This document shows positions 1-33,900 of a DNA stretch of 64,000 nt, one piece after another. The stretch covers positions 65,350,001 through 65,414,000 of the forward strand of contig NC_087436.1 in assembly GCF_036321535.1 (NCBI RefSeq), written 5' to 3'. The notes below the pieces were generated by a model that had not been told where the DNA came from, made no database searches, and saw only the letters and a program-made list of their open reading frames with translations. Source of the DNA: Camelus dromedarius (Eukaryota). Within the stretch, counting starts at the first letter, position 1. The number at the start of each line of letters is the position of its first letter. A program made the translations under genes and the position numbers.

Positions 1-539
1 AGAATAAACATGGAAGCAAACTTTAAATACTTACACAAAATTTTATATAAATTTAACCAATTGTAACTTGTTATTTCCCCCACCTCCCCCGACCCCTTTC
101 GTCTCTTTCTTTTCCTTTTCCTACTGCTGCTTTGTTTTTCTGGGGGAAAAGATGTAAGTTCTGAATGTGTAAGTTTGCAGGCAACTTAGTTACTTTAGAT
201 GTGTTCAAAGAACTAGTCATCAATGTCACCTATTAGTCACAGCTTACATGAAAGGCCTTAAATGGCAAAACTTAAAGGGCAAATCCAGAAATTTTTTCCA
301 TGTCACAGTTTTATAACATCTAATTGCACATCATGTTTTGAGGGAAATTTTTTATAATGAGATTTGAACAAAATTCATTATGTCTGCCAGACTCTGGGGC
401 TTTTTCACTTACCCCTGAAAAATAACATAAAGAGCAGTCAGAATTATGTTGTACACAGATAAACCAGATAAATGTGTTTGCTTAAAAAAAAAACTGCCAG
501 CATGTTTTTGCACTTAACAGTAAATTCAGATGCACGACC

Positions 540-765
540 CTATCCTATGAGCCAGTGTGTCAGCTGACCTCTTACCAGATCACCAGCCTCATCAGATGTT
601 CCTGTTCCTTCCTCTTCCTCGATCACTGAGCTTCAGCTACACCAGGTGTCTCAGTCCCTTCCACATGTAGAGCTGTTCCTGCCTCAGAGCTTTTACACAT
701 GTTATTTTATCTGCTGGGAATGCTTTTTCCACACTCCTCGCACTTTGCTCTAGGAGTAATTCTGT
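540..765 (+). mobile_element. L2 (LINE2) fragment
   Basis: Degenerate L2-type text (ctgcctcagagcttttacacatgttattttatctgctgggaatgct). Confidence 0.6.
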
Positions 766-1254
766 TCTTGCATTCATAGAACATGTCACAATTTGTAAGT
801 ATGTGTACTGTACGTTTGAGGTCTGTCTCATTATATCAGACCAAATTTGTTTGATCACACAGAGGAAAAAATAAGAATCCACTATCTATGAATGTGTACA
901 TATTTACATTTATATTTATAATTTGTACAAGCACCAGAATTCTAATTTTTTAACCTCTTGAGACAAACAAAATATACTTTTAAAAGATAATCAAAATATA
1001 TATGCAAATAAAGATCTAATATTTTCTTCTCCCATCCCAATAAATTAAATACCCTCTAAGCAAAGTCATACCACTTGGGAGTACTCTGCAATCATTAAAA
1101 GCAAATTCATTTCTGCTTACTCATTATATATATAGTTGCCTCTGTGTCTTACATAAAATAGGAATTCAGTATGATTGTTGAATGCATGCATGAATAAATA
1201 AATTAATGACTCTTTATGCCAAAGCACAGCAATAGGAAGTAAAAAGATGAATAA

Positions 1255-1519
1255 ATAAATAAACCGTGGTACATTCAGACAAAGAAATATCATTCAGTGC
1301 TAAAACGAAATGAGCTATCAAGCCATGAAAAGACAGGAAAGAACCTTAAATGCATGTTATTAAGTGAAAGAAGCCAGTCTGAAAAGGTTACATACTGTAT
1401 AATTCCAACTGTGTGACATTCTGGAAAAGAAAAAAATCAATGGAGTCGGTAAAAATATCAGTGGTTGCCAAACCCTGGGTGGAGAGAGGATGGATAGATG
1501 ACACAGAGGATTTTTAGGG
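1255..1519 (+). mobile_element. Old L1 (L1M) 3' region fragment
   Basis: aaaccgtggtacatt...taagtgaaagaagccagtctgaaaaggttacatactgtataattcc is a typical old L1 3' end. Confidence 0.8.
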
Positions 1520-3228: not shown

Positions 3229-3609
3229 ATCGCATCTTTTATTTAGTGAACCAACCTCTTTCCTTGGGAGGGTGAAAGAAATTTAAGCATGAGCAATGTT
3301 CTCCTAACAAATTTCTAAGGAAAGTAAGTGATGTGTGCCTGTCTTTTAGAAAAAATAGCTTACATTTACAAGTATATTTTTTCAAATTATTTGCAATTTT
3401 TAGCCCATTTCATCAGTTGATTATCAAAAATATGTAGTTAACATACAGTAACAATCAATTTTTCATTTTTTTCAGATAAGGAAACAGGGATTTAATATCA
3501 GATGACAGAGCAAGGATTCTAACACAAAATTTCTAACTTCTACAGCAGAAATCTTCCCAAAGATTGTGCTCTCTTTATTTTGTACAGGAGTATTTTAATA
3601 GTTTATTTT

Positions 3610-4480: not shown

Positions 4481-4484
4481 AGAA

Positions 4485-4740: not shown

Positions 4741-5857
4741 TAATTAATCTAAATTACCCCAAACATAAAGTAGGAAGCAGTAGGATGGCCCTTATGAATT
4801 AGGAATCAAAACTTAAGATCACTAAACCTAGCTTAGCTTCCAAAAGGGATAAAGTTAATACAAAACCTGAAATATACTTATTTTTACTTGACTAGATTTG
4901 TTGTTGTAAGTTGCATTACTCTTACCAGACTGATACTATACTCTATTTTAAAACTTTATTAATTTACCTCAGCCAATTACTCAAGCATTTTCTGAAAATA
5001 GGTAAGTACTTCCTTTTTCTTCTTCTTCTTCCACATTTTAGAAGTTACACAGCATTAGTTAGAGTCAATGCTGAAAAAGAAATGTGAGAAGATAGAGCAA
5101 AATGATTTCCACTAGCCTTGACAGCTACCAGACAAAGGGTTTGTGAACATGATGGCAGGGTTAAAATTCTGGTATTCAAATTACAGGAGAGTCATTTATT
5201 ATGGATGTATAATATTTGCATGTTATCTTTTGCTCTTATTTCTAAGTCTTAATATCTTCCTTTACTCCAAATACGTAAAATATAAAATGTCCAAATAAAA
5301 TATTATCTTTGACTTACTATGAGGTAAGCATAGTAAGGTATTTCATTTGAACCTCATCTGACTGCTCTTTTATTAGCTATTTAGAAGATCACAGAAAAGA
5401 TTTTAGATCTCATCAAATACTTCTAAACTCTAATGGCATATATCCCTCTAACCAACTTATTCAGTGAGCTACAGTCTAGGCTTTTAAGTTATACAAGTAA
5501 AGAGAGAGCAAAGCTAACATGAGAAGAAACACCTCTGACTGTTTTATTTAAGCTGTTTCGAGTTTTGTACAAAGAAGTAGAGAAGCCAATGTCTGAAAAA
5601 TTTGTGTTGAGATGATTGCAAGTGATGGGTATACACTCATATACTATTTAACTTATAGCCGGACAGGCTTGAAAAGTAATTTTAAAGCTCTAGGCTCTCA
5701 AATTCTACTGGCTTGGGGTTTGCTGTAGATATTTTGTACTGCAATCTTTCCTCTTACATTTCATTTCAAAATATGTTTCAGACGAAGTTACATGTACTTT
5801 CAAAACATAGGTTAAAGATATAAACAAAATTATTGTCTTATTATTTTAAAATGGCTT

Positions 5858-7330: not shown

Positions 7331-7789
7331 TATTTTTATATGCTGTGAGACATGAGACAAATTGAATTTTTGCTGATGCCCAAGCACATGGAAGTGTTAC
7401 AGAATACGTATCTTGGAAAATGTCTGTCTTAGTCCTCTAGCTATATTTTATTTTTCCCTCTAATACCAGGTTTGCATATGATGACAACAGAATATTTCTG
7501 GCTTTTAGCTATATTGAAAGGTAATCTTTCATGGGTAATATCACTGTTGAGAGATGGCCTTTCCTCAAGTGTGTCATATCCTTTAGTAGTCACATTGAAT
7601 TCAGGAATGGGATGCCTAAAAACAGAAGTATGTCTATGCTCACATTTAAATTTATTGCCTATTATAAGTAAAAAATGAGTAATAAAATCCATCAATTCTA
7701 CTTAACAGATAAGGCAACTAAACTGTAATAAGGTTAAATGCTGTGCAAAAAGAAACATTATTTAAAAAGGAATAAAATATTTAGCATAA

Positions 7790-8030: not shown

Positions 8031-11000
8031 TGAAATATCATTAGCATCATCTTTCATAATATGCGTTTTAATTGTATGTTTTAAAGTTTCTAATTTGGAT
8101 GTTAAAGTTTATGAAGTAAAAATTAGTGTGAGGTTACATAAGTGGAATCAAGTGAAAATTAAGCAGCAATATTTGTTTTACTATTGCTGTATCATCTATT
8201 AGGAGGGCCTGGGAGTGAAAAGGAAGGAGTGGTGCTTTTTAAAAAAAAATTAATAATACATCCATATTATATATGTGGATATTGATAGAAAAGGATATTT
8301 TAGATTTAGAATTTTTAAAATCTATCAGTGAACACAGAGTAAAGAAATCTATCAATTTGGGTAGATAGTAAATATTTTGACTTTTAAGAAGATACCTTGT
8401 TTGCAAAGTGGAGAAGACCCTGTTCTACATTAATTTTCAAAGGATCAGATATTTTGCTTTATTTCATTTTAAAGCTGTTTGTTTTTTAATAGGTAATATA
8501 TATGAATATCCTTAAAAATCCCCAAAGTAAAATGTGATATTCTTTTCAAATCCTGTTTTCCAGCCACCTCCTTCTCTTAGAAGCAACCATACACCTGTTT
8601 TTTATACATCGTTCCGGAGATAGTTCTAAGTGTTTGCAATCACATATACCTACACCAAGTGAAATATTTGGATCTGACATAAAAAGGAGACCCAGGATTC
8701 TCTTCTCGTGTCTGCTGGTGCCTATCTTGATTGGTCACCTCTGTCCTGACTCACATCCTTTAAGCTTCACCTATAATTTTAACTGAAGTTTGTAGGGTAT
8801 TTTCTGTGAAATCTTCAATTCACTTCAATCTAGTAACAGCTTGCTTCAAGAATACTGTATCTCTTCAGTTTTGACCTTCTGGGTGTACCTCTTATTTAGG
8901 GAAATAAGCTCAGCAGCAAGAGGACTTATTTTTCATTGTTAGCGCTGACAGAACTCTATTAATACGCCTTCACTTGTGCATTAAGATTATTGTAACCTTG
9001 TTTGTACCCTAGACTGATAAGGTCTAGAGAAAGCTGGTTCACACATTTGTTCTTCCTGGAATCAAAAGCTTTCAAAAAACAAGAAACTTTGTTTCTTGTG
9101 AAACTGTCATCTTAAATATTATTGAAACATGCTAGCAAGTCTCACACAAACTATTACTCTAGTTCAAAGAGAACAAGTAATTTTCATCTATAAAATCTTA
9201 ATGGGGGCATCATTTGACCATTTTCGTGACAAACCTACCTTAGTAAAATTATGACACAAAAGCAGCACTTGATCCTTGAGAAGGAGCAGGGCTTCATGAA
9301 TATTGTATCTATTAGCTTCGCTAGTGTCGTAATTTTTCTTCTCAGTTTATATGAAACAATCGAAACATCTGATACTGATCCAGTACACCTGAAATGTATA
9401 GCATAGAGAGAATGACCATGTAACACTTAAACAATTAAAATGTATGTAAAATGATATTTTTACTCACTGCTTTTTTTCAACTAAAATTGCTTCATGTAGC
9501 AAAAACCTTAATACTTTCTTTTTATCATATACATACACAGAATTTACTTGTCACATGCATTTTCATAAAATACTGTAAATCGACTTTAACTGGATAGGGG
9601 TCTATGTAAAATATCTATACATCTTTTCTAGGTCAGAAAGAAAAAAAGTGCTATACCAAGGAATTTTGACTAAAGATATTATGGAAATGGGTATGGGATT
9701 TGACTGTCTATTAGCTGTGTAGTCAGGACACACCCATGAAATGAAGAATTATGGGGTCTTCAATGGACCATCTAACGGAAATGCAAGTCTACTCTGAAAA
9801 GATCGAGCCTCATGCTAGGCCTATCAGGATTCCTAAAATTAAACTCCAGTTAGCATGAATGTATAATACAAAATTAAAAGTCCTACCTGCTAAAAGCTCT
9901 CTGAGTAAAAGCAGCATTTATAGCTAGATTATAACTATATATAAATTTGTTTTATTGCCAAATGTTTGCTTAGGTTATTTAAACCAGGCTGGAGTATTGA
10001 ATTCCAGCTTTCTTCTCCTTTGTGTGTCTGTCTCTTTTGGAGTTGGGGGTTGAATTTTTTTTCAGCTATTATGATTTGCATTTCTAATTTTCTTCTGTTA
10101 CAGCTTTATATGAAATTTGTTTTGTTCTGTTCAAGCATCTTGTGTACTAGATGGTGAGCTCAGGAGTGCCCTCTTCTGACAAGGTAGTAAACTTATGATA
10201 ATCCTCTTTTCTCACCACCACCAATCAGAACATGTCTTTTTAAAATTGTAATTTCTTCATGATTGTTAATTTTCTTTTTTTCCTTTTGTGCTTTGCGACC
10301 ATATCCCAAGAACACCCCTCCCTATGTATTTATCAGATTCTCTCCCAGAAGCAATTTTACTTCCACTCTGTTCTATCTAGTCCTTGTTTTCAATTCTCAG
10401 TCTTATAGCTGGTGTTAATGACCAACCAAGCTGTGAGCCTGTTTAGTGTTCTGGCATTTACTGTTGACTTTTTTTCCATAGGCTTTCTTTCTCTATCTCC
10501 TCTACCCTCTCCATGCTTTATCTGTGTCTTCCAGACTACTCTCCTCTTTTCATTGTGGTTTTAAAGTCCTTGTTCCTTACTTTCTACTTTCACAGATTTG
10601 CAACAACAGGGGGAGCTCCAGTAAAATTTGGTTATTTTTCTACTAAAAGGTCATTTGATATCTGTGATCTCCATCTTGAAGAAATACTAATGGTAAGTTT
10701 TATATAATGAGTTTTTTTGAGTTCTCTGTGGTAAAAACCTTAGGGTTTACTTTTTGAGGTTTGCCTTCGAAACTGTTAGGGCTGTCTCTTATGAAAAGCA
10801 TTTATACGTATCTGACACTTTTGTTACTATTTTAGGTAAGTATATCCACTGTTTATGACATTCCAGTCTTTTTTTTTTTTTAGCACATTTGAAGACTTCA
10901 TGTCACTCCAGTCCTAAATTTTGCCTCCACAGAGAGTCATTTTCATAAGCTCACAAACTATCTACTATGAAAAACAAGAAAATTTTCCATTTTACACATG

Positions 11001-12735: not shown

Positions 12736-12739
12736 AAAA

Positions 12740-15700
12740 TTAATTGCAGATATCAGCTAAATGATGGATGGAAAGTAGAAAGACCCTGAGTCCATCTTTT
12801 AGAGGTGCACCAAAGTCACAACTATTTGCAGAACAAACATTGATGAAAATGACCAGAGCCTACTAGAAAATATCTTCTACAACTAAAGACATAAGAAGGA
12901 ACCACAAAAAGACGAGTAGGAGGGGTAGACTCACAATATAGTCAAGACTCATACTTCCAGGTAGGTGACACACAAACCAGAGAAAAATTACATTGCAGAT
13001 GTTCTCCCACAGGAGAGGTCTGAGCCCCAGATTGGGCTCCCCAGCCCAGGGGTCATACACTAGGAAGATGGGCCCCAAGACAGTTTTGGCTTTGAAGGCC
13101 AGTGGGGCTTAATTTCAGGAGTCCTACAGGACTAAGGAAAATAGACTTCACTCTTAAAGGGCACACACAAAATTTCACACAATCTAAGAGGGCAAAAGCA
13201 ATAATTTGACAGGAGCCTGGGCCAAACCTACCTGCTGGAATTAGTTTGCCAGACAGGCAGGGGACAGTTGTAGTTCACCCTGGAGACACAGACACTGGCA
13301 GCAGCCATTCTTGGGAGATCCTTCTACCATGTAGATGCTTGTGCTGATAGGTACCATTGTGGAATCTTCCCTCTAGCTCTTTAGCACCAAGACCTGGCTC
13401 CTCCTGATAGCCTGTAGGTGCCAGTGCTGGGACACCTCAGGCCAGGTAACTAACTGGGTGGGGACACAGCCACATCTGTCAGCAAACAGGCTGCTACAGG
13501 CCTCCTGAGTCCATAGCCATCTCTGACCGTGGCCCTGCATTCTAGAAGCCCGCACCAGATGAAAGAAAAACACAGTTTTGCAGCTTATAGACTCAGCCTG
13601 TCCAAGCACGCTGCCCTGGGACCAGCTGGACCCTGGCCTTGCCCACTATCAGGCAGACCAACACAAGCTCTGGGACACCCCCGAGCCTGTACCCACTTGT
13701 GTCAGGAAGCAGTACCCCCGCCCCCCACCAATAACCTGAAACGAGCTCTCAAACCCCTCAGCCTTACAATCAGACTCCACAACCCAGCTCGGCCTGCCAG
13801 TAGTCTGCATTAACCTGAAGACCTGGCTTCAGCCACCAATTGGGGAGCAACCACCCCAAAGTGTTCTAGACCCTGACTTTACCCACCAGGGATCCAACAC
13901 TAGCATAGTGCCCCCTAATATGAAGGTTAAAGGACCCTGGGGTTCTGCAGTTAGAAACCTTGTGACACAGCCCCACCAACCAGCAGCCTCTGCATAAGGC
14001 AGGACCTGGAAACAAACCAGACCAGAAGCCAACCAAGCCTACAAGACCAGCCAAGTAGTCCACCCACCACAACAGGAAGACCCACAAAGCCCTCATAGAG
14101 GGAACTGCTAGAGCATATAGCTTGAGTGATAAGAGGGTCATGCACTGCCGGGATACACAGGATGTCTCCTACAGAAGGCCACTTCTCTAAGGTCAGGGAG
14201 TGTAACTAACCTACCACATACATAAAAATACAAACAACCATTTTGACATTATCAGGTGACAGAGGAACATGTTCCAGATGAAGGAATAAGATAAAACCAC
14301 AGAGGAAAAACTAAGTGAAGTGAAAATAGTCTACCCAAGAAAGTTCAGGGCAGTGATTGTAAAGATGACAAAAGAACTCAGGACAAGAATGGATGCACAG
14401 AGTGAGAAGTTAGAAGTTTTTAACAGTTAAGAAATATAAAGAACAATGAAACAAAAATGAAAAACACTTAATCAATAGTAGATTAATTGATACAAAGGAA
14501 TGGACCAGCAAGCTAGAAGACAGTAGTGGAAATCACTGATGCTGAACAGAAAAACAATGAAATGAGGACAGTTTGAGGCCTCTGGGACAACATCAAGCAC
14601 ACTGATAGCAACATTATAGGGTCCCAGAAGGATGAGCGAGAAAGGGGATGGGAATATATTTGAAGACATAATAGCTGGAAACTCCCCTAACCAGGAGAAG
14701 GAAACAGTCATCCAGGTGCAGGAAGCACAGAAAGTCCCATACAGCATTAACCCAAAGAGGAACACACCAAGATACACTGTAATTAAAATGGCATAAATGA
14801 AAGATACACAGAGAGTAAAGGCAGTAAGGGAAAAATAACAATGTACAAGGGAGCTCCCGTAAGGTTATCAGCTGACTTTTCAGCAGAAACTCTGAAGGCC
14901 AGAAGGGAGTGGCATGATATACAGTGATTAATCTACATGCAAGGACATTCTACCCAGCAGTGCTTTTCACTCATATTTGATAGAGCAAGCAAAAGGTAAA
15001 AGAATTCAGCAATATCAAAACACCTTTATAATAAATGTTATGGGAACCTCTCTAAGTGAAAAAGAAAGGCCGTAACTGGAAACATGAAAATTATAAAATG
15101 GAAAAGCTCACTGATAAAGGCAAACATACAGTAGAGGTAGGAAATGATCCATGCAGAAAGCTGGTATGAAGGTTAAAAGACAAAAGTAGTAAAATTATCT
15201 ACATCCAAAATAAGCAGTTAAAAGATACACAAAACAGATTCAAATATATCAAAAATAGTACTCATGAGGGGAGGAGAGTACAAATGCAGGGTTGTTAAAT
15301 TTCATTTGATATTAAGAGATCAACAACTTACAACATAGATATAGAGAGATGCTATAAAAACCTCAGTGTAACCACAAGCCAAAAATCTGTAATAGCTATA
15401 CACACACAAATAAAATAGAATCCAAACATAATACTAAGATAGTCATTAAATCACAAGAGAACAAAAGGGGGAAAAAAGGCCTACAAAATAACCCCAATTA
15501 AATGGCAATAAGAACATATCAGTAATTACTTTAAATGTAAATGGAATAAATGCTCAATAAAAGACAGAGGACTGAATGGATACCAAAACAAGACCCATAT
15601 ACATGCTGCCTACAAGAGGCTCACTTCAGATCTAAAGACACACAAAGACTGAAACTGAGAGGATGGAAAAATGATATTCCACACAGATGGAAATCTAAAG

Positions 15701-18212
15701 AAAGCCAGGGTAGCAATATTTTATCAGACAGACTTGAAATAAAGACTTGAAAATAAAAAGATAAAGAAAGACACTAGGTAATGATCAATGGATCAACCCA
15801 GCAAGAAGAAATAACAATTAGAAATATATATGCACTCAACATAGGAGCACCTAAACATGTAAAGCAAATATTAACAGATAAAAAGGAAGAAATTGATAGT
15901 AACTCAATAATAGTAGGGGACTTTAACACCCTACTTATATTAAAGGACAAATCATCCAGACAGAAAATCAGTAAAGGAACACTGGCTTTAAATGACACTA
16001 ATTAGACTAGAAAGACTTAATTGATACATATATATTCCCTTTGAAAGCATAATATATACATTCTTTTCAAGTGCACATGGAATATTCTCCAGAATAGATG
16101 ATATATACTAGGCCACAAAACAAGCCTTGGTAAATTTAAGAACACTGAAATCATAGCAAATAAGCATTTATTCTGAACACAATGGTATGAGACTAGAACT
16201 CAACTATAAGAAAAAAATTACAAAACAAAACAAACAAAAAAACAAAGGGAAGCTAAACAACATGCGACTAAATAACCAATGGATCTCTGAATAATAGAGG
16301 AAATCAAAAAATACCTGGAGACAAAGGAAAATGAAGAGACAATGATCTAAAACCTCTGGAATGCAACACACATATTTCTAAGAGATAAGTTTATAGTGAT
16401 ACAAGCTTACCTCAGGGAAGAAAAATATTACCAACAACCTAACCTCACACCTAAAGGAATTAGAGAAAGAAACTTACAGCTAAAGGAACTAGAGAAAGAA
16501 ACAAACCCAAAATTAATAGATGAAAATAAATCATAAAGATCGGAGCATAAATAAATGAAATAGAGACTAAAAAATAATAGAAAAAATGAATAAAACTAAA
16601 ATCTGATTCTTTAAAAAGATAAGCAAAATTGATAAACTTTTAGTCAGACTCAGGAAAAAAAAAAGACAGGGCCCCAAAAAAGGAAGAGTTACAACCAACA
16701 CCACAGAAATACAAAGGGTCATGAGACTACTATGAACAACTCTATGCCAATAAAATGGACAACCTAGAATAAATGGGCAAATTCTTGGAAAGGTACGAAT
16801 CTCCCAAGACTGAATCAGGAAGAAATAGAAGATAAGAACAAACTACAAGTAATGAAATTGAAATTTAAGATACGAACAGAGAAACTACGAGTAACGAAAT
16901 TGAAATTTAAAATCTGCCAGCAAAGTCTAGGACCAGATGGCTGCACAGGTGAATTTTACCAATCATTTAAAGAAGAGTTAATACCTGTTCTTCTCAAACT
17001 ATTCCAAATTGCAGAGGAAGGAATCCTTCTAAAACCATTCCACAATCCAGCATCATCTGGATGCCAAACATAGACAAAGATATCCCCCACCCCCTCAACC
17101 ACACACACACACATAAACACTATAGGCCAATATCACTGGTGAACACAGATGCAAAAGTCCTCAACAAAATACTAGCAAACAGACTCCAACAACACATTAA
17201 AAGGATCATATGCCATGATCAAGTAAAATTTATCCCAGGGATGCAATAATTTTTTCAGTATTTCAAATATCACTGTGATACACTACATTAGAAATTGTAG
17301 AATAAAAACCCTTAGTTGAAGAAAAAGCTGCTGCTGCCAAATTCAACATCCATTTATGATAAAAATCTCCAGAAAGTGAGCATAGAGGGATAACATAATA
17401 AAGGCCACATATGAGAAACCCACAGCAAACATCATACTGAACTGTGAAAAGCTGAAAGCATTTCTCTAATACTGGGAACAAGACAAGGATGCCAATTCTT
17501 GCCACTTTTTTTTAATACACTATTGGAAGTCCTAGAGCAATAGGAAAAAAGTAAATAAATCCAAATTGAAAAGGAAGAAGTAAAACTGTCACTGTTTGCA
17601 GATGACATGATAGTATACATAGAAAATCCTAAAGACACTACCAGAAAACTACTAGAGCTTATCAATAAATTTGGTAAGGTCACAGGATATAAAATTAATG
17701 TACAGAAATTTGTTACATTTCTATACACTAACAATGGACTATCAGAAACAGAAATTAAAAACAATCCCATTTACCATTGCATAAAAAAGAATACAATACC
17801 TAGGAATAAAATTACCTAAGGAAGTAAAAAACCTATAAAACATGGATGAAAGAAATTGAAGATGACACAAACGGGTGAAAAGATATACCATATTCTTGGA
17901 TTGTAAGAATTAATATTGTTAAAATGACTGTACTACCCAAAGTAATGTACAAATTCAATGTAATCTTTATCAAAATGCCAAGGGCATTTTTCACAGAGCT
18001 AGAACAAAAATTTTAAACTTGTATGAAAACACAAAAGACCCTGAATAGCCAAAACAATCTTGAGAAAGAAGAATAGAGCTGGAGGAATTATGCTTCCTGA
18101 CTTCAGACTACACTACAAAGCTACAGTAATCAAGACACTATGGTCCTGGCACAAAAACAGACACATAGATCAATGGAACAGGATAGAGCACCCAGAAATA
18201 AATCCACACACA
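12740..18212 (+). mobile_element. LINE-1 copy A: 5'UTR, ORF1 (~14250-15090), ORF2 (~15501-18212), disabled and 3'-truncated
   Basis: Endonuclease (IIVGDFNT) and RT ([13 protein letters not shown]) motifs; homology stops abruptly after EINPHT at ~18212. Confidence 0.95.
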
Positions 18213-21200
18213 TGGAGACACTCCCTCTCCAGCCCCCTCCAGGGAGGTCAATGAGGACAGAAGTGGAGCTTCCAAGGCTCAGAGGAGAAAGCAATAACCA
18301 CTGCCCACCACACAGAGACAGTCTCAGGGGATTGGAGGGCAGTGTGAGCTCTAGCTGGGGGTGTGGGCAGAACAGCATAAAAAAAAAAAACACTGTTGGG
18401 GTGTGTGTGTGTGGGAGAGGGGCTCAGTGCAGATGCACTTGGCTCCATTGTTGGTGTATTCTCCCTACAAGAGAAGTGGGACTCAGTCATAGCCATCACT
18501 GATGTGAGGAAGCAGGGCTGAAGACTGAATTTATACCCTGTGGCCATGCAACTTCAAGGGAGGGACTGAGATTTGTTTATAGACCAGGCAGAGAGGGTGG
18601 ATTCGCTCTCTGGAACCTTTGTGGACCTGTGCCTTTAGGACTAACAGGCAGTGAGCAGAGTTCTGACTCATGAAGGGGGCAAGTACGGGCGTTTACAACA
18701 AGCCAGTGTACCATACTATATGTGGATGTGGGGCTGGGGTCTGCATCAAACTGGCACACTACAGATTCAAGTGTGTGACTGCACGCTTGCTACACCAGGT
18801 CCTAACACCTGACACTGGTGGATCTGCACTGGTGGTTCCTGGGGCTCAGAACCTTGGGGTATCAGAACAGGTGGCCAACATTTCGACAGCTAAGGTGGGG
18901 ACAAAGGCAGTGTTAACAAAGGGTATTTCATAAGCCTGCATAACAGGTGACAGACACCACCACAGAGGGCACTTCCCAGTGGACATTTCCTGCTTACACT
19001 TCTTCCCAGCTGAAGCAGTCCAACACTGCCTACTACACATCACAGCTCAGAAATGGGTCTAGAAGCCTCTATTCCAGCAACAAGGGAGCAGACCAGGCCT
19101 TTGTCAAGGCTTTGACAACTACAGAACAAAAAAAGAGGCCTGGCTCAACAACAATCAAGGCAGGCTCTGAACACTACACCAACCACACCCCCAATCAAAG
19201 GGATAACAGCCAACTCTCAGAGAAGATGTGGCAACCATCCATACTAAGAACAGCCATTGCAACAAAACTATTAGATGCCCACAATCTACACAGGATCTCT
19301 CCCATTTTAAATAAAAACAAAAAGTAAAACAGCACTTCAAGAACAAAGTAGATAACTGATACTCCTAAATCCAGAGAGATGAAAGTAAAATGAACAGAGG
19401 AACTACTCCCAATTAAAAGAACAAGAGAAATCCCCTGAAAGAATGATTAATGAAATAGACCTTGATAGTCTACTAGATCATGACTTCAAGAAGGGAATGA
19501 TCAATGTAATGAAGGAACTAAAAGAGACTATCAATAGAGACAGAATACTTTAAAAAGGAAATTGAAACTATACAGAAGAGCCAATTAAAAACAGAAAACT
19601 CAATTGCTGAGATAAGAGCCGAGATAAAGGCAGTCAAAAGCAGACTGGATAATGCAGAGGAACAAATAAGTGACTTAGAAGACAGGATAACAGAAGTTAC
19701 CCATTCAGAATAGCAGACAGAAAAGCAAATAAAAACCAATTAAAGCGATATAATGGACCTATGGGATAATACAAAGCATGCCAACCTATGCATAATAGGA
19801 ATCCCAGAAGGAGAAGAAAGAGAAAAGAGGATTGAAAAGGTATTTGAAGAAATCATGACAGAAAACTTTTCAAACCTAAAGAAGGAAACACATATCCAAG
19901 TGCAGGAGACACAGAGGGTCCCAAACAAGAAGAACCCAAACAGACCTACACGAAGACATATTATAATTAAGATGGCTAAAGTTAAAGAAAGGATTGTAAA
20001 GGCAGCAAGAGAAAAACAAAGAGTTAATTACAAGGGAAGCCCCATAAGGCTTTCAACTGATGTCTCTACACAAACACTGCTGGCTAGAAGGGAGTGGCAA
20101 GATAATGTTCAAAGTCCTGAATGAGAAAAACCTGCAACCTAGAATATTCTATCTGGTAAGACTATCCTGTAGAGTCGAAAAAGAGATAAATAATTTCACA
20201 GACAGACAAGCAAAAACTAAAAGCATTCAGCAATACTAAACCTATGCTAAAAGAAATATTGGAAGGTCTACTCTAAATAGAAAAGAAACAGGAAGCTATA
20301 GAAATGAGAAAATCATAATTGGAAATGCAATAACTACAGTAAATTGCAAGAGAATAAACATGAATATTAAAAAATAAAGAAAAATAATATCAAGATCATA
20401 AAGTGTGGGAGAGGGGAGCAAGAAAATACAGATTTTTTTTCTCTCTTCCCCCCACCTTTTTTCCTTCATTATTTTTAAGATGTGTTTGAGCCTACATGGC
20501 TAACAGTCTAAAGGAAACAGATATAGTAAGGGGTTAGCATACTTGAAAAACAGGATAACCACAAATCAAAAGCATACAATAAAATCACAAAAACCAAAAA
20601 GAAACTAAGCTAATACAAAAGAAAAATATCAAACCACAAAAAAGAAAAACAAAAAGGAAAAGACAGGAACAAAGAAGAAATACAAAATCAACTGGAAAAC
20701 AAAGTTCAAAATGACTATAAACACATATCTATCAATAATTACTATAAATGTCAGTGGACTAAATGCTCCATTCAAAAGACACAGAGTGGCAGATCGGATA
20801 ATGAAACAAAAACCTACAATATGCTGCCTACAAGATACCCACTTTAGAGTGAAGGACACACATAGATTGAAAGTGAGAGGATGGAAAAAGATATTTAAGC
20901 AAATGGAAATGACAAGAAAGCAGGAGTAGCAAAACTCGTATCAGGTAAAGTATACTTTAAAACAAAAGCCATCAAAAGAGATAAGGAAGGACACTATGTA
21001 ATAATCAAAGGAGCAATACAAGATGAAGATATTACACTTGTTAACATGTACACCCAATATAGGAGCACCTAAATATATAAAATAAATCCTAATAGACATA
21101 AAGGGAGAAATTGATGGGAATACAATAATAGGAGACATTAAGACCCCACTAACATCACTGGACAGGTCTTCCAGACAGAAAATCAATAAGGCAATGGACA

Positions 21201-24200
21201 TACTAAATGACACAATAGAACAGTTGGACTCGTTTGATATTTTTAGGATATTACATCCCCCCAAAACAGAATATACATTCTTTTCAGGTGCTCATAGAAC
21301 ATTCTATAGAACAGACCACATACTCAGGCACAAAAGAAGCATCAACAAATTTAAGAGGACAGAAATTATTCCAAGCATCTTCTCTGATCACAATGGCATG
21401 AAACTAGAAATCAACCACAGAAAAACAGATGAGAAAAAGATGACAGCATGGAGACTAAACATCATCAATGATGAAATCAAAGAAGAAATTAGAAAATACC
21501 TGGAGACAAATGACAATGAAAACACAACCACACAAAATCTATGGGATGTAGCAAAAGCAGTCCTAAGAAGGAAGTTCATAGTGATACAGGCCTTCCTCAA
21601 AAAAGAGCAATCTCAAATAAATAACCGGACATACCACCTAAAAGAATTAGAAAAAAGAAGAGCAAACAAAACCCAAAGTCAGCAGAAGGAAAAAAATAAT
21701 AAAGGTCATGGAGTAAATAAATATAATAGAGATTAAAAAAAAATAGAAAAAAAATCAGTCAAACCAAGAGCTGATTTTTTTTCAAAGACTAAACAAAATT
21801 GACAAATCTCTGGCCAGGCTCACCAAGAAGAAAGGCGCACACAAATAAAATAAGAAGTGAAAATGGAGAGATTACAACCCAACACCACAGAAATACAAAA
21901 ATTCATAAGAATATTATGAACAACTGTATGGCAATAAATTGGACAACTCAGAAGAAACGGACAAGTTTCTAGAAACATACAGTCCACCAAAACTGAATCA
22001 AGGGGAAATGGATTACTTCAACAGACCAATCACTAGAAGTAAAATAGAATCAGCAATAAAAAAACCTCCCTGGAAACAAAAGTCCAGTGACCAGATGGCT
22101 TCAGTGGGGAATTCAATCAAACATACAAAGAAGAGCTCATACCAGTTTTTCTCAAACTCTGCCAAAAGACTGAAGAGGAGTGAATACTCCCAAACTCATT
22201 CTATGAAGCCACCATCACCCTGATACCAAAGCCAGACAAAGACACTACCAAAAAAGAAACCTATAGGCCAGTTACCATTGATGAACATGCAAAAATCCTC
22301 AACAAAATATTAGCAAACAGAATCCAACAACACATAAAGAAAATCATACACCATGATCAAGTTGGATTCATCCCAGGGACACAAGGATTGTTCAACATAC
22401 ACAAATCAATAAGCATGATACACCACATCAACAAGAGAAAGGCCAAAAATTACATGATCATCTCAATAGATGCAGAAAAAGCATTGGATAAAATTCAATA
22501 CTCATTTATGATAAAAACTCTTACTAAAGTGGGTATAGAGAGAACATATCTCAACATAATAAAACCTAATTATGACAAACCTACAGCCAGCATAATACTC
22601 AACAGTGAGAAACTGAAAGCCTTTCTGCTAAAATCTCAAACAAGACAAGAATGTCCACTCTCACCACTTCTATTCAACATAGTATTGGAAGTCCTAGCCA
22701 TACCAATTAGACAAGAAAAAGAAAGAAAAGGGACCCAAATTGGAAGAGGTAAAATTGTCATTATATGCAGATGACATGATACTATATATATAAAACCCTA
22801 AAGGCTCCACACAAAAACTATTAGCGCTAATAAAATAATTCAACAAGGTAGCAGGATACAAGATTAACATACAGAAACCAGTGGCATTTCTTTACACTAA
22901 CAATGAAATATCAGGTAAGAAATGTAAAGAAACAATCCCTTTTAAAATTGTATCAAAAACAATACTTAGGAATAAATCTGACCAAGGAAGTGAAAGACAT
23001 ATGCAGAGAACTACAAACATTTGCTAAGGAAATTAAAGATGACTTAAAGAAATGGAAAGATATCCCATGTTCTTGGATTGAAAGAATTAATACTGTTAAA
23101 ATGACCATACTACCCAAAGCAATCTACAGATTTAATGTGATCCCATATCAAATTACCCAGGACATTTTTCACAGAATTAGAACAAATAATCCTAAAATTT
23201 ACATGGAATCACAAAAGACCCAGAATTGCCAAAACATTACTGAAGAAAAACAATGAAGCTGGAGGAGTAACACTCCCAGATTTCAGACAATACTACAGAG
23301 CTACGGTAATCAAAACAGCATGGCATTGGTTAAAAAAAAAAAAAAAAGACGGACATATGGATCAATGGAACACAATAGAGAGCCCAGAAATAAACCCACA
23401 AACTTTTGGTCAATTAATCTTTCACAAAGGAGGCAAGAACATACAATGGAGTAAAGACAGTCTCTTCAGCAAGTGGTTTTGGGAAAACTGGGCAGCCGCA
23501 TATAAGTCAATGAAGTTAGAATACTCTTGCACACCATACACAAAAATAAACTCAAAATGGCTTAAAGACTGAAACATAAGACAAGACACTTATAACCCTC
23601 CTAGAAGAAAATATGGGCAAAACATCATCTAACATAAATCTCAGCAATATTCTCCTGGGGCAATCAACCCAATAAACAGAAATAAAAGCAAAAATAAATA
23701 AATAAATGGGGCCTAATTAAACTTATAAGCTTTTGCACAGCAAAGGAAATGATAAGCAAAACAAAAAGACAACTTACAGAATGGGAGAAAATATTTTCAA
23801 AAGATGAGACTGACAAGGGATTAATATCCAGAATATATAAACAGCTCATATAACTTAGTAAGAAAAAAACCAAACAGCCAAATCCAAAAATGGGCAGAAG
23901 ACCTAAACAAGCAATTCTCAAATGAAGACACAAATGGCCAACATGCACATGAAAAAATGCTCAGTATCACTAATTATCAGAGAAATGCAAATCAAAACTA
24001 CAATGAGCTACCACCTCACACCAGTCAGAATGGCCATCATTCAAAAGTCCACAGATGATAAAATGCTGGAGAGGATGTGGAGAAAAGCGAACTCTCCTAC
24101 ACTGTTGGTGGGAATGTAGTTTGGTGCAGCCATTATGGAAAACAATATGGAGATTCCTCAAAAACAAAAAAAAAACTAAAATAGACTTACCATATTATCT

Positions 24201-27200
24201 AGTAATCCCACTCCTGGGCATATATCCAGAGGGAACTTTAATTCAAAACGACACATGTGAGATTCCAGTCAAGATGGCAGAGTAATAGGACCACAAACTC
24301 ACCTCTCCTCGCAACTACAACAAAACCACAACCAACTGCTGAACAGCCATCAAGAGAAAAAGTGGAGCCTAGCAAAAAAGATCTGCTTCAACTGGAAACA
24401 GAGAGAGGGAACCACAGAAAGAAGGTAAGAGGTGTGCGCTCATGATATACTAGGACCTGATACCCATAGGTAGGCAAACCACAAGCTAAAGAACAACTAA
24501 ATCATAGAGGCACTCCCACAGGATGACAGTTCTTAGCCCTATGTCAAGCTCCCCAGCCCACGGTTCTGGCAGTGGGTGAAGGAGACCCCAGGACATCTGG
24601 TTTTGAAGGCCAGTGGGGCTTAACTTCAGGAGCCCCACAGGGGAGACAGAGACTTAATTCTCCTGGGAAATGCACACAGGATCTCACATGCACTGGGTCC
24701 AGAGGCAGAGACAATAATTGCATAGGAACCTGGGCTAGACCTGCCTGCTGGTTTTGGAAGTTCTCCTGGGGAAATAGGGGACTGCAGCTGCAGTTCACCC
24801 AGGGGACATAAAAGCTGGTGGAGGACATTCCAGGGGTGTTCATCTACATGAGCTTTCTTGGATGCCGACATCTTGATTGGATCAGTAGCAACAAGACCCA
24901 GCACCACCCAACAGCTGGTAGGCTTAAGGGCTGGGAAGCCTCAGGCTAAACAACCTACTGGGTGGGAACACAGCCTCACTCATCATCAGACTTTCTGAGC
25001 AACAAATGCCTCTAGACAGGGCCCTACCCACCAGAGGTCCAGGCCAAGCTTCACCCAGCTGTGGGCAGACACTGACCCCTCCTACCAGGAAACCTACATA
25101 AGCCTCTATCCAAGCCTCATCCACCAGGGGGCAGATAGTAGAAATAAGAAGACAGTCCCAAAGCCTGTGGAAGGAATCCTCAAACACAGGCTAGACTCTA
25201 CACTGGGACACATGGGACATCTCCCACAAAGGGCCACCTCACCAAGGTCAAGAATCATAACTAACCTATCTAAAAATACAAAGAGAAAGACAGACAAGGT
25301 GAGGTGGCAGAGGAATATCCTCTGGGACAAAGCACAAGATAATATCCCAGAAGAAGAAATAATTGCTGAGGAGATAGGCAGTTTATCTGAGAAAGAGTTT
25401 AGAATGATGATAGTGAAGATGTTCAGAGAGCTCAAGAGGAGTATAGATGCACAGAGTCAAGTTTTTAACAAAGAGCTGGAAACTATAAAGAATACTCAAA
25501 CAGAGTTGAAGAATAAAATTACTGAAATTAATAACACACTAGAGGGAACCAAGAACAGACTAAATGAGGCAGATGAATGGATTAGTGAGCCAGAGACACA
25601 TTAATGGAAATCACTACTGCAGAACAGAAAAAAGAAAAAGGAATGAAAAGAAATGAGGATAATTTAAGACAATATGAAATGTTCTAATATTCGCATTATA
25701 GCAGTCCCAGGAAGTGAAGAAAGAAAGGACCTGAGAAAATATTTGAAGAGATACTAACTGAAAACTTCCCTAACTTCGAAAACACCCATGTCCAGGAAGC
25801 TCAGAGAGTCCCACACAGGATCAACCCAAAGAGGAATACACCAAGGCACATACTAATCAGATTCAGTAAAATTAAGGTTAAGGAGAGAATATTAAAATCA
25901 GCAAGACAAAAGCAACAAATAACATACAAGGAAACACCCATAAGGTTATCAGCTGATTTTTCAGCAGAAACCCTTCAGGCCAGAAGGGAGTGGCATAATA
26001 TATTTAAAGTTCTGAAAGGGAAAAACTTACAGCCAAGAATACTCTATCCTGCAAGGCTCTTATTCAGAATTGGAGAAATCAAAAGCTTCACAGATAAACA
26101 AAAGCTAAAAGAATTCAGCACATCAGAACCAGCTTTACAACAAATGTTAAAGGAGCTACTCTAGTCATCAAAACATAAGAATAGAGAACAAAAAGAAAAA
26201 AAGAAACTACAAAAAACAAACTCAAAACAATTAACAAAATGGCAGTAAGAACATACCTATCAATAATTGCCTTAAATGTAAATGGATTAAATGCTCCAAC
26301 CAAAAGACACAGACTGGATGAATGGATACAAAAACAAGACCCATGTATATGCTGTCTAAAAGAGACCCACTTCAGAGCTAGAGACACATGCAGGTTGAAA
26401 ATAAGGGGATGGAAAAAGATATTCCAAGCAAATGAAAACCAAAAGAAAGCTAGAGTAGCAATACTTACATCAGACAAAATAGATTTTAAAATAAAAACTG
26501 TTACAAGAGACAAAGAAGGGCACTACATAATGCTTAAGGGATCAAGCCAAGAGGAGGATATAACAATTGTAAATACATATGCACCCAACATAGGAGCACC
26601 TCAGTGTATAAGGCAATTGTTAAAAGACATAAAGGGAGAAATTGACAGTAACACAATAATAGTAGGGGACCTTAACACCCCACTTACATCAATGGACATA
26701 TCATGCAGGCAGAAAATCAATAAGGAAATACAGGTGCTTAATAACACATTGGAACAGATGGACCTAATTGATATCTGTAGCGCATTCCATCCAAAAACAA
26801 CAGAATACACGTTCTTCTCAGGTGCACATGGAACATTCTCCAGAATCAACCACATGCTGGCCCATAAAGCTAGCCTCAGCAAATTCAGGAAAACTGAAAT
26901 CATACCAAGCATCTTTTCAGACCACAATGCTATAAGGTTAGAAATCAGCTACGAGAAAAAACGGCAAACATGCGGAGGCTAAAAATTTGCTACTAAACAA
27001 CCAATGGATCATGGAAGAAATCAAAGAGGAGATCAAAAAATACTTTGAGAGAAATGAAAACAAAAGCACAACAATCCAAAACCTCTGGACACAGCAAAAG
27101 CAGTTCTCAGAGGGAAGTTTATAGCAATACAAGCCTACCTTAGGAAACAAGAAAAATCTCAAGTAAACAACCTAACCTTAAACCTAAAGCAGCTGAAGAA

Positions 27201-30200
27201 AGAAGAACAAACAAACCCCAAAGTTAGCAGAAGAAAAAAAAATCATAAAGATTAGAGCAGAAATAAATGAAATAGAGAATAAAGAAAAAAAAAAAAGAAA
27301 AGATCAATGAAACTAAAAGCTGGTTCTTTGAAAAGATAAACAAAATTGATAAGCCTTTAGTCAGACTCATCAAGAAAAAAAGGGAGGGGGCCCAAATTAA
27401 TAAAATCAGAAATGAAAAAGGAGAAGTTAACTGACACAACAGAAATACAAGGGATCATAAGAGGATACTATGAGCAACTATATGCCAACAAAAATGACAA
27501 TGCAGAAGAAATGAACAATTTCTTAGAAATGTACAATTTGCCAAGACTAAACCAGGAAGAAATAGACAATATGAATAGACCAATTACCAGTACTGAAATT
27601 GAATTAGTAATTAAAAACCTCCCAACAAACAGAAGTCCAGGACCAGATGGCTTCACAGGTGAATTCTACAAAATATTTAGAGAAGAGTTAATACCTAACC
27701 TTCTGAAACTATTGCAAAAGTTGTGGAGGAAGGAACGCTTCCAAACTCATTCTACGAGGCCATCATCATCACTCTGATACCAAAATCAGACAAAAAAAGA
27801 GAAAATTACAGGCTAGTATCACTTATGAAAACAGATGCAAAAATCCTCAACAAAATACTAGCAAATTGACTCCAGCAATGCCATGATCAAGTTGGATTTA
27901 TCCCAGGGATGAAGGGATTTTTGAATATCCACAAAATCAACATGATACACCACATTAACAAACTGAAGAAGAAAAACCACGTGATACTCTCAATAGATGC
28001 AGAAAAAGCTTTTGATAAAATTCAACATCCATTTATGATCAACACTCTCCAGAAAGAGGGCATAGATGGAACATACCACAACATAATAAAGGCCATATAT
28101 GACAAACCCATAGCTAACATCATACTTAACAGGGAAAAGCTGAAAGCATTTCCTCTAAGATCAGGAACAAGACAAGGATGCCAGCTCTCACCACTTTAAT
28201 TCAACATAGTTTTGGAAGTCTTAGCCATAGCAATCAGAGAGGAAATAGAAATAAAAGGAATCCAAGTTGGAAAAGAAAAAGTAAAACTGTCACTGCTTGC
28301 AGATGACATAATACTATACATAGAAAACCCTAAAGAAGTGACCAGAAAACTACTAGAACTCATCAATGAATATGGTAAAGTTGCAGGATACAAAATTAAC
28401 ATACAGAAATCAGTTGAATTACTATACACTAACAATGAAATAGCAGAAAGGGAAATTAAGGAAACAATACCACTTACCATCATACCAAAAATAATAAAAT
28501 ACCTAGGGAAAAACCTACTCAAGGAGGCAAAAGACATGTATGCCAAAAACTGTAAGACACTGATGAAGGAAACTGAAGATGAAGATGACATAAACAAATG
28601 GAAAGATACACAGTGTTCTTGGATTGGAAGAATCAATTTTGTTGAAATGGCCATACTGCCCAGGCATTTTACATATTCAATGCAGTCCCTATCAAATTAC
28701 CAATGACATTCTTCACACAGCTGGAACAAAAAAAAAAATGTTAAAATTTGTATGGAAACACAAAAGACTCTGAATAGCCAAAACAATCTTGAAAAAGTAG
28801 AACGGAGCTGGGGGAATCATGCTCCCTGACTTCAGACTACTACAAAGCTACATTAATCAAAACAGTATGGTACTGGCACAGAAACAGACACACAGATCAA
28901 TGGAACAGGATAGAAAGTCCAGAAATAAACACATGCACGTATGGTCAGTTAATCTATGACAAAGGAGGCAAGAATATACAATGGAGAAAAGACAGTCTCT
29001 TCAATAAGTGGTGCTGGAAAAACTGGACAGCTACCTATAAAAGACTGAATTTAGAACATTCCCTAACACCATGTACAAAAATAAACTCAAAATGGATTAA
29101 AGACCTAAATGTAAGACCACATACTATAAAACTCCTACAGGAAAACATAGGTAGAACACTTACAGACATACATTAAACAATGTATTTTTTTGAACCAGCT
29201 CCTGGAGTAATGGAAATAAAATAAAAAATAAACAAATGGGATTTAATCAAACTTAAAAGCTTTTGTACAGCTAAGGATACCATCAACAAAATGAAAAGAC
29301 AACCAACAGAATGGGAGAAAATATTTGCAAATAATGTAACTGATAAGGGACTAATTTCCAAAATATACAAACAGTTCATACACATTAATATCAAAGAAAC
29401 AAGCAACCCAATCCAAAAATAGTCAGACCTAAACAAGTAATTCTCCAATGAAGACATAAAAATGGTCAATAGGCACATGAAAAAATGGTCAGCATCACTA
29501 ATTGTCAGAGAAATGCAGATCAAAACTACAATAAGGTATCACCTCACACCAGCCAGAATGGCTATCATTGAAAAGCCTACAAATGATAGATGCTGGAAAG
29601 GGTGTGGAGAAAAGGGAACCCTCCTACACTGTTGGTGGGAATGTAGATTGGTGCAGCCACTATGGAGAACAGTATGGATGTTCCTTTAAAAACTGAAAAT
29701 ATACTTACCATGTGATCCAGCAATCCCACTCCTGGGCATATGTCCAGAGAAAAATAAAACTTCAAAAAGACACATGCACCCCAACGTTCACAGCAGCACT
29801 ATTTACAATAGCTAAGACATGGAAACAACCCAAATTTGCATCCACAGATGACTGGATAAAGAAGATGTGGTACATATATACAATGGAACACTACTCAGCC
29901 ATAAAAAAGAATAAAATAATGCCATTTGCACCAATATGGATGGAACTGAAGATTGTCATTCTAAGTGAAGTGGGCTGGAAAGAAAAAGAAAAATGCCATA
30001 TGACATCATTTATATGAGGTATCAAAAAAAAAACAATAATAAGGACACAAATGAATTACTTATTATTTATAACTTAAATGACTGATTTCTTGAATATGTG
30101 TAAGCACATTCGACTATCCTTTATGATTGGATTACTGCATTCTGTTGATTCTTATTTTGTAGTTGCCTATATTCCTTTGATAACTATATAAGTTTAAAAA

Positions 30201-30990
30201 GCTAAAGCTCTAATCTGTTCTTAGAAACAATGATCAGTACATGTATGTAAAAAAAGATGTGCAGTATACTGTATGTATTTACATCCAATATAATGTATAT
30301 GTGTAGTCAAACTATAATAATTCTACCTAATAAAACTGAAAAAGGGAAAAAAATTATACAGACAAGAAAAAAAAAAAAAAAGAAAAAGAAAAAGACATGT
30401 TCCCCAATGTTCGTAGCAGCAGTATTTACAATAGCCAAGGCATGGAAACAACCTAAATGTCCATCGACAGATGATTGGATAAAGAAATTGTGGTATATTT
30501 ATACAACAGATTACTATTCAGCCATAAAAGATAATAAAACAATGCTATTCGCAGCAACATGGATAACCCTGGAAAATGTCATTCTAAGTGAAGTAAGCCA
30601 CAAAGAGAAAGAAAAATACTATATGATATCACTTATATGTGGAATCTAAAAAAAAAGAAAGAGAAAAATGAACTTATTTACAAAACAGAAACAGACTCAC
30701 AGACATAGAAAACAAACTTATGGTTACTGGGGGCAGGGAGGGGATGGGAAAGGATAAATTGGGAGTTTGAGATTTGCAGATACTAATATATATAAAATAG
30801 ATAAACAACAAGTTTATACTGTATAGCACAGGGAACCATATTCAATATCTTGTAGTAACTTATGGCAAAAAAGAATATGAAAACCAATATACGTATGTTC
30901 CTATATGACTGAAGTATTGTGCTGTACACCAGAAATTGACACAACATTGTAAACTGACTATACTTAAAATATATTTTTTTAAAAAAAGAA
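18213..30990 (+). mobile_element. LINE-1 copy B (18213-24258 plus ~30389-30990), interrupted by copy C
   Basis: Partial 5'UTR, ORF1 (DLWDNTKHANLCIIGIPEGEE), ORF2 from 20711. ORF2 text ...IQNDTC resumes after C as TCSPMFVAA; 3'UTR and A-rich tail to ~30990. Confidence 0.95.
24259..30388 (+). mobile_element. LINE-1 copy C, full-length and disabled, nested in copy B
   Basis: 5' start gagattccagtcaagatggcagag; ORF1 ~25300-26163; ORF2 26239-30017 with a 247-aa endonuclease ORF; poly(A) 30367-30381; imperfect TSD aaaacgacacatgt (24245-24258) / aaaaagacatgt (30389-30400). Confidence 0.95.
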
Positions 30991-33900
30991 AGACTGTATA
31001 TTAATCTAAACTTATTTTGGACACAGAATCACTTTCTTAGAATGAAAAATAATGACTCAGTTTTCAGTGCTTCCTTTATTGTTTCATCTCCATTTTTAGC
31101 AGGAATTCCTCTGAAGGTACTGGTCTTTGAATGATATCAATCTAGAAATTCTAAAAGTGACACAGATTTTTCCTCTCTCTTGTACATTTTAGGGCATGTT
31201 CATTATTTCCACTTGGATCTGGATGTGTATATCTGCTTAACTCATCATACCCAGAAGTATAATCATACCCATTAATTTTTAATAGATCTAAAAAATGCAC
31301 TTAAGAATGAATTTCCTATCAATATCAAACACATAAAACAGATTCACATATGTTTAATTCTTAACAGCTTTCTATCTTGAATAGGCATAATACATTATGC
31401 AACATTATTAGCAAGACTAAATTCTGTCAAATTTGTTTAAATTTTAAAGGAATGCATGGATCTCAATGATGACTAGGGTCTATTGAAATGTTATAAAAAG
31501 GTGGCAGAGTTTTAGTATCCTAAAATAAGTAAATATGCTTCTATACTACTATGTATGCTAATTAGAAAAGTTATCTTCAAACCTAGGGAAAATGCTTAAT
31601 ATAAATTAGAAAATTATGCCTTAAAATAGCACAGTTTAATTGGTTTTAATGTCATTTTAATGGCAATAATTATCCTTATTGACCTCAACACAATGTCGAA
31701 TACAGTTTTCTTCCAATAATAAATTTGATGTTTTCTGTCTGAATTTTCCTGACGAGAGTCCTATAATTTTAATCAAACATGTTATATTGTAATTGAGAAA
31801 CCCTCAAGTAGCATTTTAAAGAATTATGGAAGTATTATTCCATAAAGTAATTGGAATCCAATTCCAATCACATTCACCAATAGGTTTTCATACTAACTTT
31901 TCACTTACTTGTCTTAAATGCCATCTATCTTTGTTATGATGTATCTCTCATTAGATGGTGAGAATATATGGATCAATGCTTTTGTTCCCAAGTTATCAGT
32001 TCAGATATGATTGTTGTTCAATAGTGTTTCCATCCCCTTTTCCAGAACCAACACCTGAAAATGATTTAAAGGAGCAAAAAAAGAGTATTTTCTAAAATTT
32101 TAATATAGCACAAAATTCTGAAAATTTGGATAAAATTCTACGTAAAGTGCAGAATTTATCTTAGCTACTATATTTCTTAAATTCTTTAAATTATAAGTAG
32201 AATTCCATGATGCCATCCAATTCCAACTTTTTAAAAATGGATTTTTTTTTGTATTCCAGTGCTGCAGTGCGCGTGAAGAAATTGTTTTCCATATAAATGT
32301 GAATTTCCTCATTAAATTTGGAAATTACTTGACAGTATTTATTAAAAATGCATATATTTCTGACCAAACAATTGCCACCTGGTTAATCTGACCTATACAA
32401 ACAAAGTATGAAAATATATATACCTAAACGCACACATGTATATGTTTGATTTTACGGTGTTTTTACAAATCTAATTGTAAATCAATAGAAATTATATTAA
32501 TAAATTATGTAAGTCAATAGAAAATATTAATAATAAATTATGTACTATGCAGCTATTAAAATAAGTAATCTAGATATATTAACTGTAAAAATTTTTCATG
32601 ATACTATGGATTTTGATCCCATTTTTATTAAAATCAGATAAAAGAAACCAAATGCATGTGTTATATGTATATTTTAGTTTTGTACATACATAGAAAAAGT
32701 AGAAAATTATATACCAGGTTGTTAACTTTGATCACTTTAAGGAAGGTTAGGAAATAGGAGAGAAAATAAAGATTATATCTGTATATACTTCAGCTTAATT
32801 TGAAGTGTTACAAAAATCTTGTATACTTCTGATTTTTTAAAATATAGAACTCAGTTAACAGTGCCCCAGTTTGAAGGATTAACAATGTTTGAATGCTCAG
32901 AAGCATATGAAAGCATTTTTAATAAAAGTTACTTGATAAAATGTGCTAAATGACTTCCTATTTTAGTTTTTCCATTTCCTCAATAGTAGGAAGTTAAAAA
33001 CTTTAAAGCTGTTACTTCATTCTAGCTTATGTTTGTCATAACAAAGCTCATTTTATGGGACTTAAATGTGGAAAAAAATACCTTTTATATATAAAATTTT
33101 CAAGATGGATGTTTTCTGGGAATCTGTAAGTTAATCTGTAAGTCAGTGTGCTTAAAAACATGATAACCATAAAGACACTCAGTTAATATGAAGTGACAGA
33201 TACTAATGGACTATTTAGTAGATTAATAGCTAGCATGAAGTCTTGCTAGCTGTTTATTTCAATCCTTGGCTTAAAAGGATGCACAAGCCATTCAGGTCTC
33301 TAAGCACACTTAATTCAAGTGGACAGAAGCACATGATTATATAACCAAGCTGACTATTGAAATTGTAAGCGTTATCTTTCAGCTGCTCTACTGCTTCAAG
33401 CTGTGGAGATATAAAATGCTAGCCTTGGCACGAGTAGTTGGAGCATCACCAAACTTTGATGAACAAAGAACTTACCAAGTGCCTTTTTTCCCCCAATGAC
33501 AAAGAAAATTTTTCATTTTTATAACATTGTCTTCCCAGTTGTTAATTAATACCATGCACAGGTGGTGTAAGGGATAACCACAGTAAATCACAAAAAGGGT
33601 TATGAGCCTCCAAAGAACTATTATTAAATACAGGTAGGTCATAAAACAATGCTTTAGAATGATGGGACTGTCAGGTGCCACATTTTCAATCTGTACTTTT
33701 GAAGCTGGATCCTCTACTTCTGCAAAGAGTTTTAGTTTAGGATGTGGAGTTTACTTTATTATAATTAGAAGAAATGTTTGTTCAATCCCTGAGTAAAATA
33801 CACTTTGATTCAACGATTTGCTTTCCCTGTGTATTTTTTTCATTTTTTCAATTGTATTTAAGATGCAAAGTAGGATGGGCACCTTCAAGTTAATAACTGG

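Follow-up and report, generated by a model that had tools for sequence, protein, structure and literature searches.

Did a gene once stand inside the camelid gene desert at C1:65,350,001–65,414,000, and, if so, to which family did it belong? This stretch of the Camelus dromedarius genome (contig NC_087436.1), 64,000 nucleotides (nt) long and called the window below, carries fifteen short segments (A–O) on its minus strand, spread between window positions 248 and 33719. A sequence-only reading had described them as the exons of a relic gene and had taken that gene for a distant paralog of KIAA0825 (DUF4495). Our analysis identifies the locus as a probable ancient unitary pseudogene of unidentified family. 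The existence of a relic multi-exon gene draws moderate support from the asymmetry of stop codons among frames, from steps in GC content and from borderline codon tests, and we consider it fairly likely that the segments belong to a real relic gene. The KIAA0825 kinship is unsupported: profile, tblastn and register tests were all null, and intron positions disagree.

Stop codons are distributed as in decayed coding exons

Segments A–O are the set of the earlier reading, extended; C, D, E, F, N and O were delimited from its peptides and splice phases, and their ends and frames are ours. All eight segments for which it had given both ends are indeed bounded by a minus-strand AG acceptor and a GT donor, and its phase chain from 9388 to 3256 was reproduced, with frame offsets of 0, 0, 1, 2, 2, 1 and 0 and 9 stops in 267 codons. 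Over all fifteen segments (671 codons), the chained, +1 and +2 frames contain 20, 35 and 69 stops, or 3.0, 5.2 and 10.3%, where the background is 6.5% per frame. In AT-rich coding exons, stops accumulate in the +2 frame because third-position T precedes AA, GA and AG. Accordingly ordered rates are found in intact BCHE-like exons of the same genome (0/4.4/8.2%) and in EPHA5 exons (0/4.0/9.9%), which after simulated decay of 20–30% yield about 2.3–3.5/5–6/8–9.5%, a pattern that the segments resemble.

The +2 frame exceeds the +1 frame by 34 stops, with a one-sided p of 1.5e-4 when frames are drawn at random, 1e-4 when the fewest-stop frame is taken and 1e-3 when either of the two lowest is taken; two of these three nulls mimic the picking of open frames. 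The excess is present separately in segments G–M (p 0.0007–0.004) and in the other eight (p 0.01–0.04). The frame-wise stop pattern thus exceeds chance. The chained frame also has the best sense-codon score in 11–12 of the 15 segments, where a selection-aware null gives 6.4 (p 0.005–0.02), and mean GC is 0.36 in 11 segments versus 0.30 in their flanks; by the same measure, true KIAA0825 exons stand at 0.40 versus 0.31.

On balance, the segments are likely what is left of the exons of a protein-coding gene, rich in AT and not assigned to a family, whose death probably came early in placental history and was followed by drift. An intron-containing gene would once have coded for a protein at this locus, would have been lost early in placental mammals, and would then have decayed neutrally through lost donors, frame changes and LINE-1 insertion. 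Disabling lesions are present, namely the 20 chained-frame stops, frame changes in segment C and two absent GT donors, and the locus likely makes no protein now. The in-frame stop rate of 3.0% (95% interval 1.8–4.6%) corresponds to about 0.2 of bases changed (0.11 to >0.3). If each neutral site changes at about 2e-9 per year, decay would have lasted roughly 60–150 million years, an age biased low by the picking of open segments.

Segment architecture and splice signals

The segments fall into two clusters separated by an 18-kb block of LINE-1 and other repeats (12808–30995, delimited by a self-BLAST mask), in which we take several frames to be LINE-1 ORF1- and ORF2-like. Two near full-length, decayed LINE-1 copies lie head to tail on the plus strand at 19160–30346, and a third, older one begins at about 12800. 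Splice sites were scored with a frequency-based matrix, which at the 18 introns of the true KIAA0825 gene gives 4.3–12.1 and 1.5–18.1 bits. Among GT sites, the donors of the segments rank in the top 0.3–23%, and among AG sites their acceptors rank in the top 0.8–48%; with this matrix, no usable donor was found in B, C, F or N.

In the upstream cluster, segment A (33476–33719, 244 nt) has AG/GT ends with an acceptor of 2.0 and a donor of 8.4 bits. Read in the frame that continues into B, it has 3 stops, and the adjacent +1 frame is open for 80 codons (33478–33717, minus strand), a length unusual for AT-rich DNA and without a database match. The stops of A (3/0/11 in the chained, +1 and +2 frames) nonetheless fit the chained frame better than the open frame as the true one. 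The 75-nt intron proposed after A is present at 33475–33401, as is the open LEAVEQ... frame, so that part of the earlier description stood. Segment B (33260–33400), which follows this intron, is open; it lacks a GT donor at the point where its frame stops, and its end is approximate. Segment C (32160–32392) has an acceptor of 9.0 bits and a main frame open for more than 50 codons; frame changes would be required at each of its ends, and it carries AT in place of the GT donor. Segment D (31909–32054) has 2 stops, an acceptor of 7.6 and a donor of 9.2 bits, and was chosen unaided by an ab initio chainer. Segment E (31684–31760) has a weak acceptor, and F (31080–31287) is open for about 45 codons, with an approximate end and no donor found.

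The downstream cluster begins with G (9239–9388, 150 nt; 1 stop; acceptor 7.1, donor 10.4 bits), which the chainer also chose, and continues with H (8889–9055, 167 nt; 4 stops), I (7467–7615, 149 nt) and J (5533–5592, 60 nt); I and J are open in the chained frame, as had been reported. Segment K (4968–5070, 103 nt; acceptor 11.6, donor 8.0 bits) contains an internal purine-rich repeat that makes its frame uncertain, and codon tests favour a frame other than the chained one. It is followed by L (4758–4866, 109 nt), with 2 stops and a weak acceptor, by M (3256–3338, 83 nt), which adjoins an old LINE-1 piece, and by N (800–885, VDSYFFLCVIKQIWS), which is open with an approximate end. The last segment, O (248–414, 167 nt), has 3 stops, an acceptor of 10.8 and a donor of 7.9 bits, and was again picked by the chainer. 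All segments lie on the minus strand. Additional exons were sought left of the window and at 33.7–46.4 kb, where the few candidates were not convincing.

Evidence against a gene

Several observations weigh against past coding. The stop-asymmetry statistic was picked after the counts for G–M were known, its value of 34 is high compared with decayed real exons (22 ± 9 when indels are left out, 10 ± 10 when they are included), and exons of the KIAA0825 type show no +2 asymmetry at all. The summed sense-codon advantage is borderline (p 0.05–0.06) and null for G–M alone (p 0.38), while a periodic dinucleotide test of low power yields p 0.065 under the selection null and, once stops are removed, p 0.2. 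A number of the splice sites are weak, we ourselves chose the frame and ends of six segments, no intact homolog was found by word-index or HMMER protein searches, and reads of the relic in several frames matched no Pfam family (0 of 9; 0 significant of 18).

Chaining adds a further caution. Ab initio chainers were run on 36 strand-windows of 34 kb, over 612 kb, and built phase-compatible chains of 9–49 'exons' in all 36. The phase chain alone is therefore no more than chance, as one can be constructed in any AT-rich window. The target chain scored at background, ranking 6th and 14th of 36, and a second chainer placed it 36th of 36, a ranking for which the target had the least unmasked DNA. The test is weak because real exons decayed by 25%, used as a positive control, also fell within the background.

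These points feed the leading alternative, that no gene existed and that AT-rich non-coding DNA was selected by eye because it shows AG/GT ends and open frames, with a few real relic exons possibly among the picks. The raw material for such picking is ample, as the 36 of 36 control chains and 29,369 overlapping pseudo-exons pooled from the flanks attest, and the periodicity result, the missing homolog and the low atlas recognition of two open frames are all consistent with it. Picking open frames lowers the stops of the chosen frame but should not load the +2 frame over the +1 frame, and the asymmetry persists under selection nulls in each of two subsets that share no segment; its sign is the one seen, counted as higher or equal, in 7 of the 8 real exons tested. 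We therefore judge an origin by picking alone to be rather unlikely.

Searches for living relatives

If the segments derive from a protein-coding gene, a relative might persist elsewhere. Queries against protein collections were segments A, B and I. When the A+B read was compared by HMMER with 1.84 billion representatives, 3 matches but no long homolog emerged; two are unrelated by inspection, and the third is a 47-residue open reading frame (ORF) at 70% identity (E 2.7e-10). Its cluster holds three 47-residue sequences, on contigs of 12.6–49.7 kb, that match segment A at about 70% and were probably called as genes in the DNA of other mammals. All three ORFs terminate at a stop that is also present in camelid segment A, so this lesion would predate the split of the lineages, and the loss would be common to other mammals, if the chained frame was coding. 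The 70% identity gives no evidence of constraint because neutral DNA of a related mammal could reach it.

Word-index protein searches returned 251 candidates for A+B, none at E ≤ 10, and 25 for a four-sequence alignment of A, likewise none; these searches miss distant orthologs because they need exact 5-residue words. An atlas search with two open frames gave either no usable match or bacterial clusters at 0.81–0.83. One metagenome locus matched the relic and was rejected as a chance match in a prokaryotic contig. We found no literature on this locus, which genome-browser annotation may still record. Six names were absent from nine supplementary files of Mudge et al. (PMC6886504), two other files of which could list the human site by coordinates.

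Relationship to KIAA0825

The true KIAA0825 gene lies on C3 and has 19 coding exons, one of which ends in a GC donor after residue 485. One exon of this gene matches a Camelus protein at 100% identity. A genome scan with PF14906 found this gene only (5 of 5 matches, 7 candidates) and nothing in the window. When 7 of 120 listed KIAA0825 orthologs were compared with 264 kb by tblastn, the best E value was 0.18, outside the segments, and no claimed exon was matched. A profile of 99 orthologs, drawn from mammals, turtles and birds only, allowed a spliced aligner to recover the true gene exactly. The same alignment over the locus scored 21.3 bits versus a null mean of 22.1 (114 shuffles). On the picked exons, the local profile score was 21.9 versus 21.7 ± 2.1 (23 of 60 shuffles as high) and the chained score 63.6 versus 62.4 ± 5.7 (35 of 100 as high), with scores equal to nulls at every softness tried. 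An hhalign comparison gave E 0.084 at an unrelated site. No colinear matches thus emerged from either the profile or the tblastn searches, the first of the two outcomes that the earlier reading had named as speaking against itself.

The peptides cited in favour of kinship fared little better. All six occur in the sequence, but FNEEIHIYMEN and NIVAK lie in different frames, the proposed NIVAK|VLV junction would require an AT donor, and YWKKTVFDI, in segment E, does not share the frame of the phase chain 32054>31760>31287. The profile gave no support to the claim that the peptides are colinear with KIAA0825: the best match fell in the expected register for 0 of 15 segments (p 0.58–0.62). A KIAA-like word can be read in each of two frames of A, so such resemblances arise easily, and by these sequence comparisons the quoted ones are no better than chance.

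Gene structure disagrees as well. Placed by hand in the proposed register, eight junctions fall at about residues 185, 250, 351, 401, 427, 601, 636 and 687, and KIAA0825 has introns at residues 323, 377, 409, 485, 573, 624 and 687. One of the eight is shared, the N acceptor at 687, in phase 0 versus 2. KIAA0825 encodes residues 101–323 in a single 670-nt exon, a stretch that in the relic is broken by two junctions or more, and it has no intron at 351 or 601.

A dead and very diverged KIAA0825 paralog, possibly from the early vertebrate genome duplications, would still account for a few features. The top local profile match on the picked exons is one of the pairs that had been proposed (the C/D junction against residues 338–365, about 21 bits), the N acceptor coincides with the intron after residue 687, and the latrophilin–TECR pair that borders the desert has a duplicate on C27, so the region does possess ancient paralogs. 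Simulated paralogs were detected in 12 of 12 cases at 38% identity, 7 of 12 at 31%, 1 of 12 at 27%, 2 of 12 at 24% and 0 of 12 at 19%. The tests are therefore blind below about 28% identity, and the kinship, unsupported throughout, is excluded only above about 30%. Given scores equal to nulls, best matches out of place and discordant introns, we consider such a paralog doubtful. The fuller proposal appears similarly improbable: that the locus is the fossil of a vertebrate gene, an undescribed second KIAA0825-family member located between ADGRL3 and TECRL, which disappeared near the placental root and still works in marsupials or reptiles.

Transcription of the locus

It is very improbable that these splice sites still serve a living gene or a spliced non-coding RNA, for although several sites are strong and nine RNA-labelled runs contain 5–36% of sampled words, the chained frame has 20 stops, and in four runs covering 30950–33370 (2.4 kb) the 19 contigs span introns and exons alike, pass unspliced through the C–D intron and both ends of E (three predicted junctions) and contain no splice joint, the contigs being patchy and the libraries possibly containing DNA.

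Genomic setting and other features of the window

The neighbouring genes on C1 are marked by a latrophilin C-terminal exon at 64.75 Mb, the last exon of a TECR-type gene at 66.18 Mb and an EphA5 ligand-binding exon at 66.97 Mb, 1.6 Mb from the segments. We take these neighbours to be ADGRL3, TECRL and EPHA5, as in the human gene order on 4q13, and on that basis assign the locus to the ADGRL3–TECRL gene desert, whose GC content is 28–40% outside insertions. The segments are single-copy DNA without repeat copies within 664 kb; a transposon origin was rejected on this self-comparison, made without a repeat library. A DNA search of the genome with 2.3 kb of the locus found no second copy except for one intronic repeat piece, and a distant parent would escape it. 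That piece, 32641–32926, has a 76% copy on C9 and is probably an old transposon fragment.

Beyond the segments, a GC-richer block at 46250–51900 contains two similar long-terminal-repeat-like stretches near 46300–46800 and 48480–49000 and, on the minus strand at 49928–50287, a degraded retroviral RNase H-like frame (PF17919, E 2.9e-8). At 61100–63430, on the plus strand, a broken C2orf81-type gene copy (DUF4639, E 3e-44) runs into short-chain dehydrogenase exons (adh_short, E 1.7e-5). This stretch has a GC content of 55% versus 33% in the region and is one of about ten dispersed copies, with 22 DNA matches (72–87%) on 5 contigs outside the window, mostly on C15.

Comparison with known systems

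The relic resembles the KIAA0825/PF14906 gene in its AT-rich multi-exon layout, its scale of exon sizes and a few short, ordered peptide look-alikes, but differs in chromosome, in intron positions and phases, and in the lack of a significant sequence match. CCDC142 (PF14923), considered as another helical family of the same kind, showed no likeness to the relic; a genome scan gave 7 matches on C15, 1 below the cut-off at C1:85.4 Mb and none in the window. The weak match, at C1:85410939–85411121 (17 bits, one stop), lies 140 kb from a steroid-dehydrogenase match on the same contig and may be due to chance.

If the relic is real, a whole gene was lost early in placental evolution, invisible to comparisons among human, mouse and livestock, and the locus indicates where a living gene might be sought in marsupials and reptiles. 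Were it a KIAA0825 paralog, it would open another way to study a protein that is poorly understood and that a recent preprint links to insulin-receptor trafficking (PMC13596269). The nearest parallel is with unitary pseudogenes, whose definition by Zhang et al. 2010 (PMC2864566) demands that a reference species retain the ortholog intact at the syntenic place. The camelid locus differs from them in that protein searches found none. It is like the unitary pseudogenes of Zhang et al. and of Mudge et al. 2019 (PMC6886504) in its apparent introns, its stops, its lost donors and in that a DNA search found no functional counterpart in the genome. For now, the locus is best described as a relic of a familiar type, not as an established KIAA0825 paralog.

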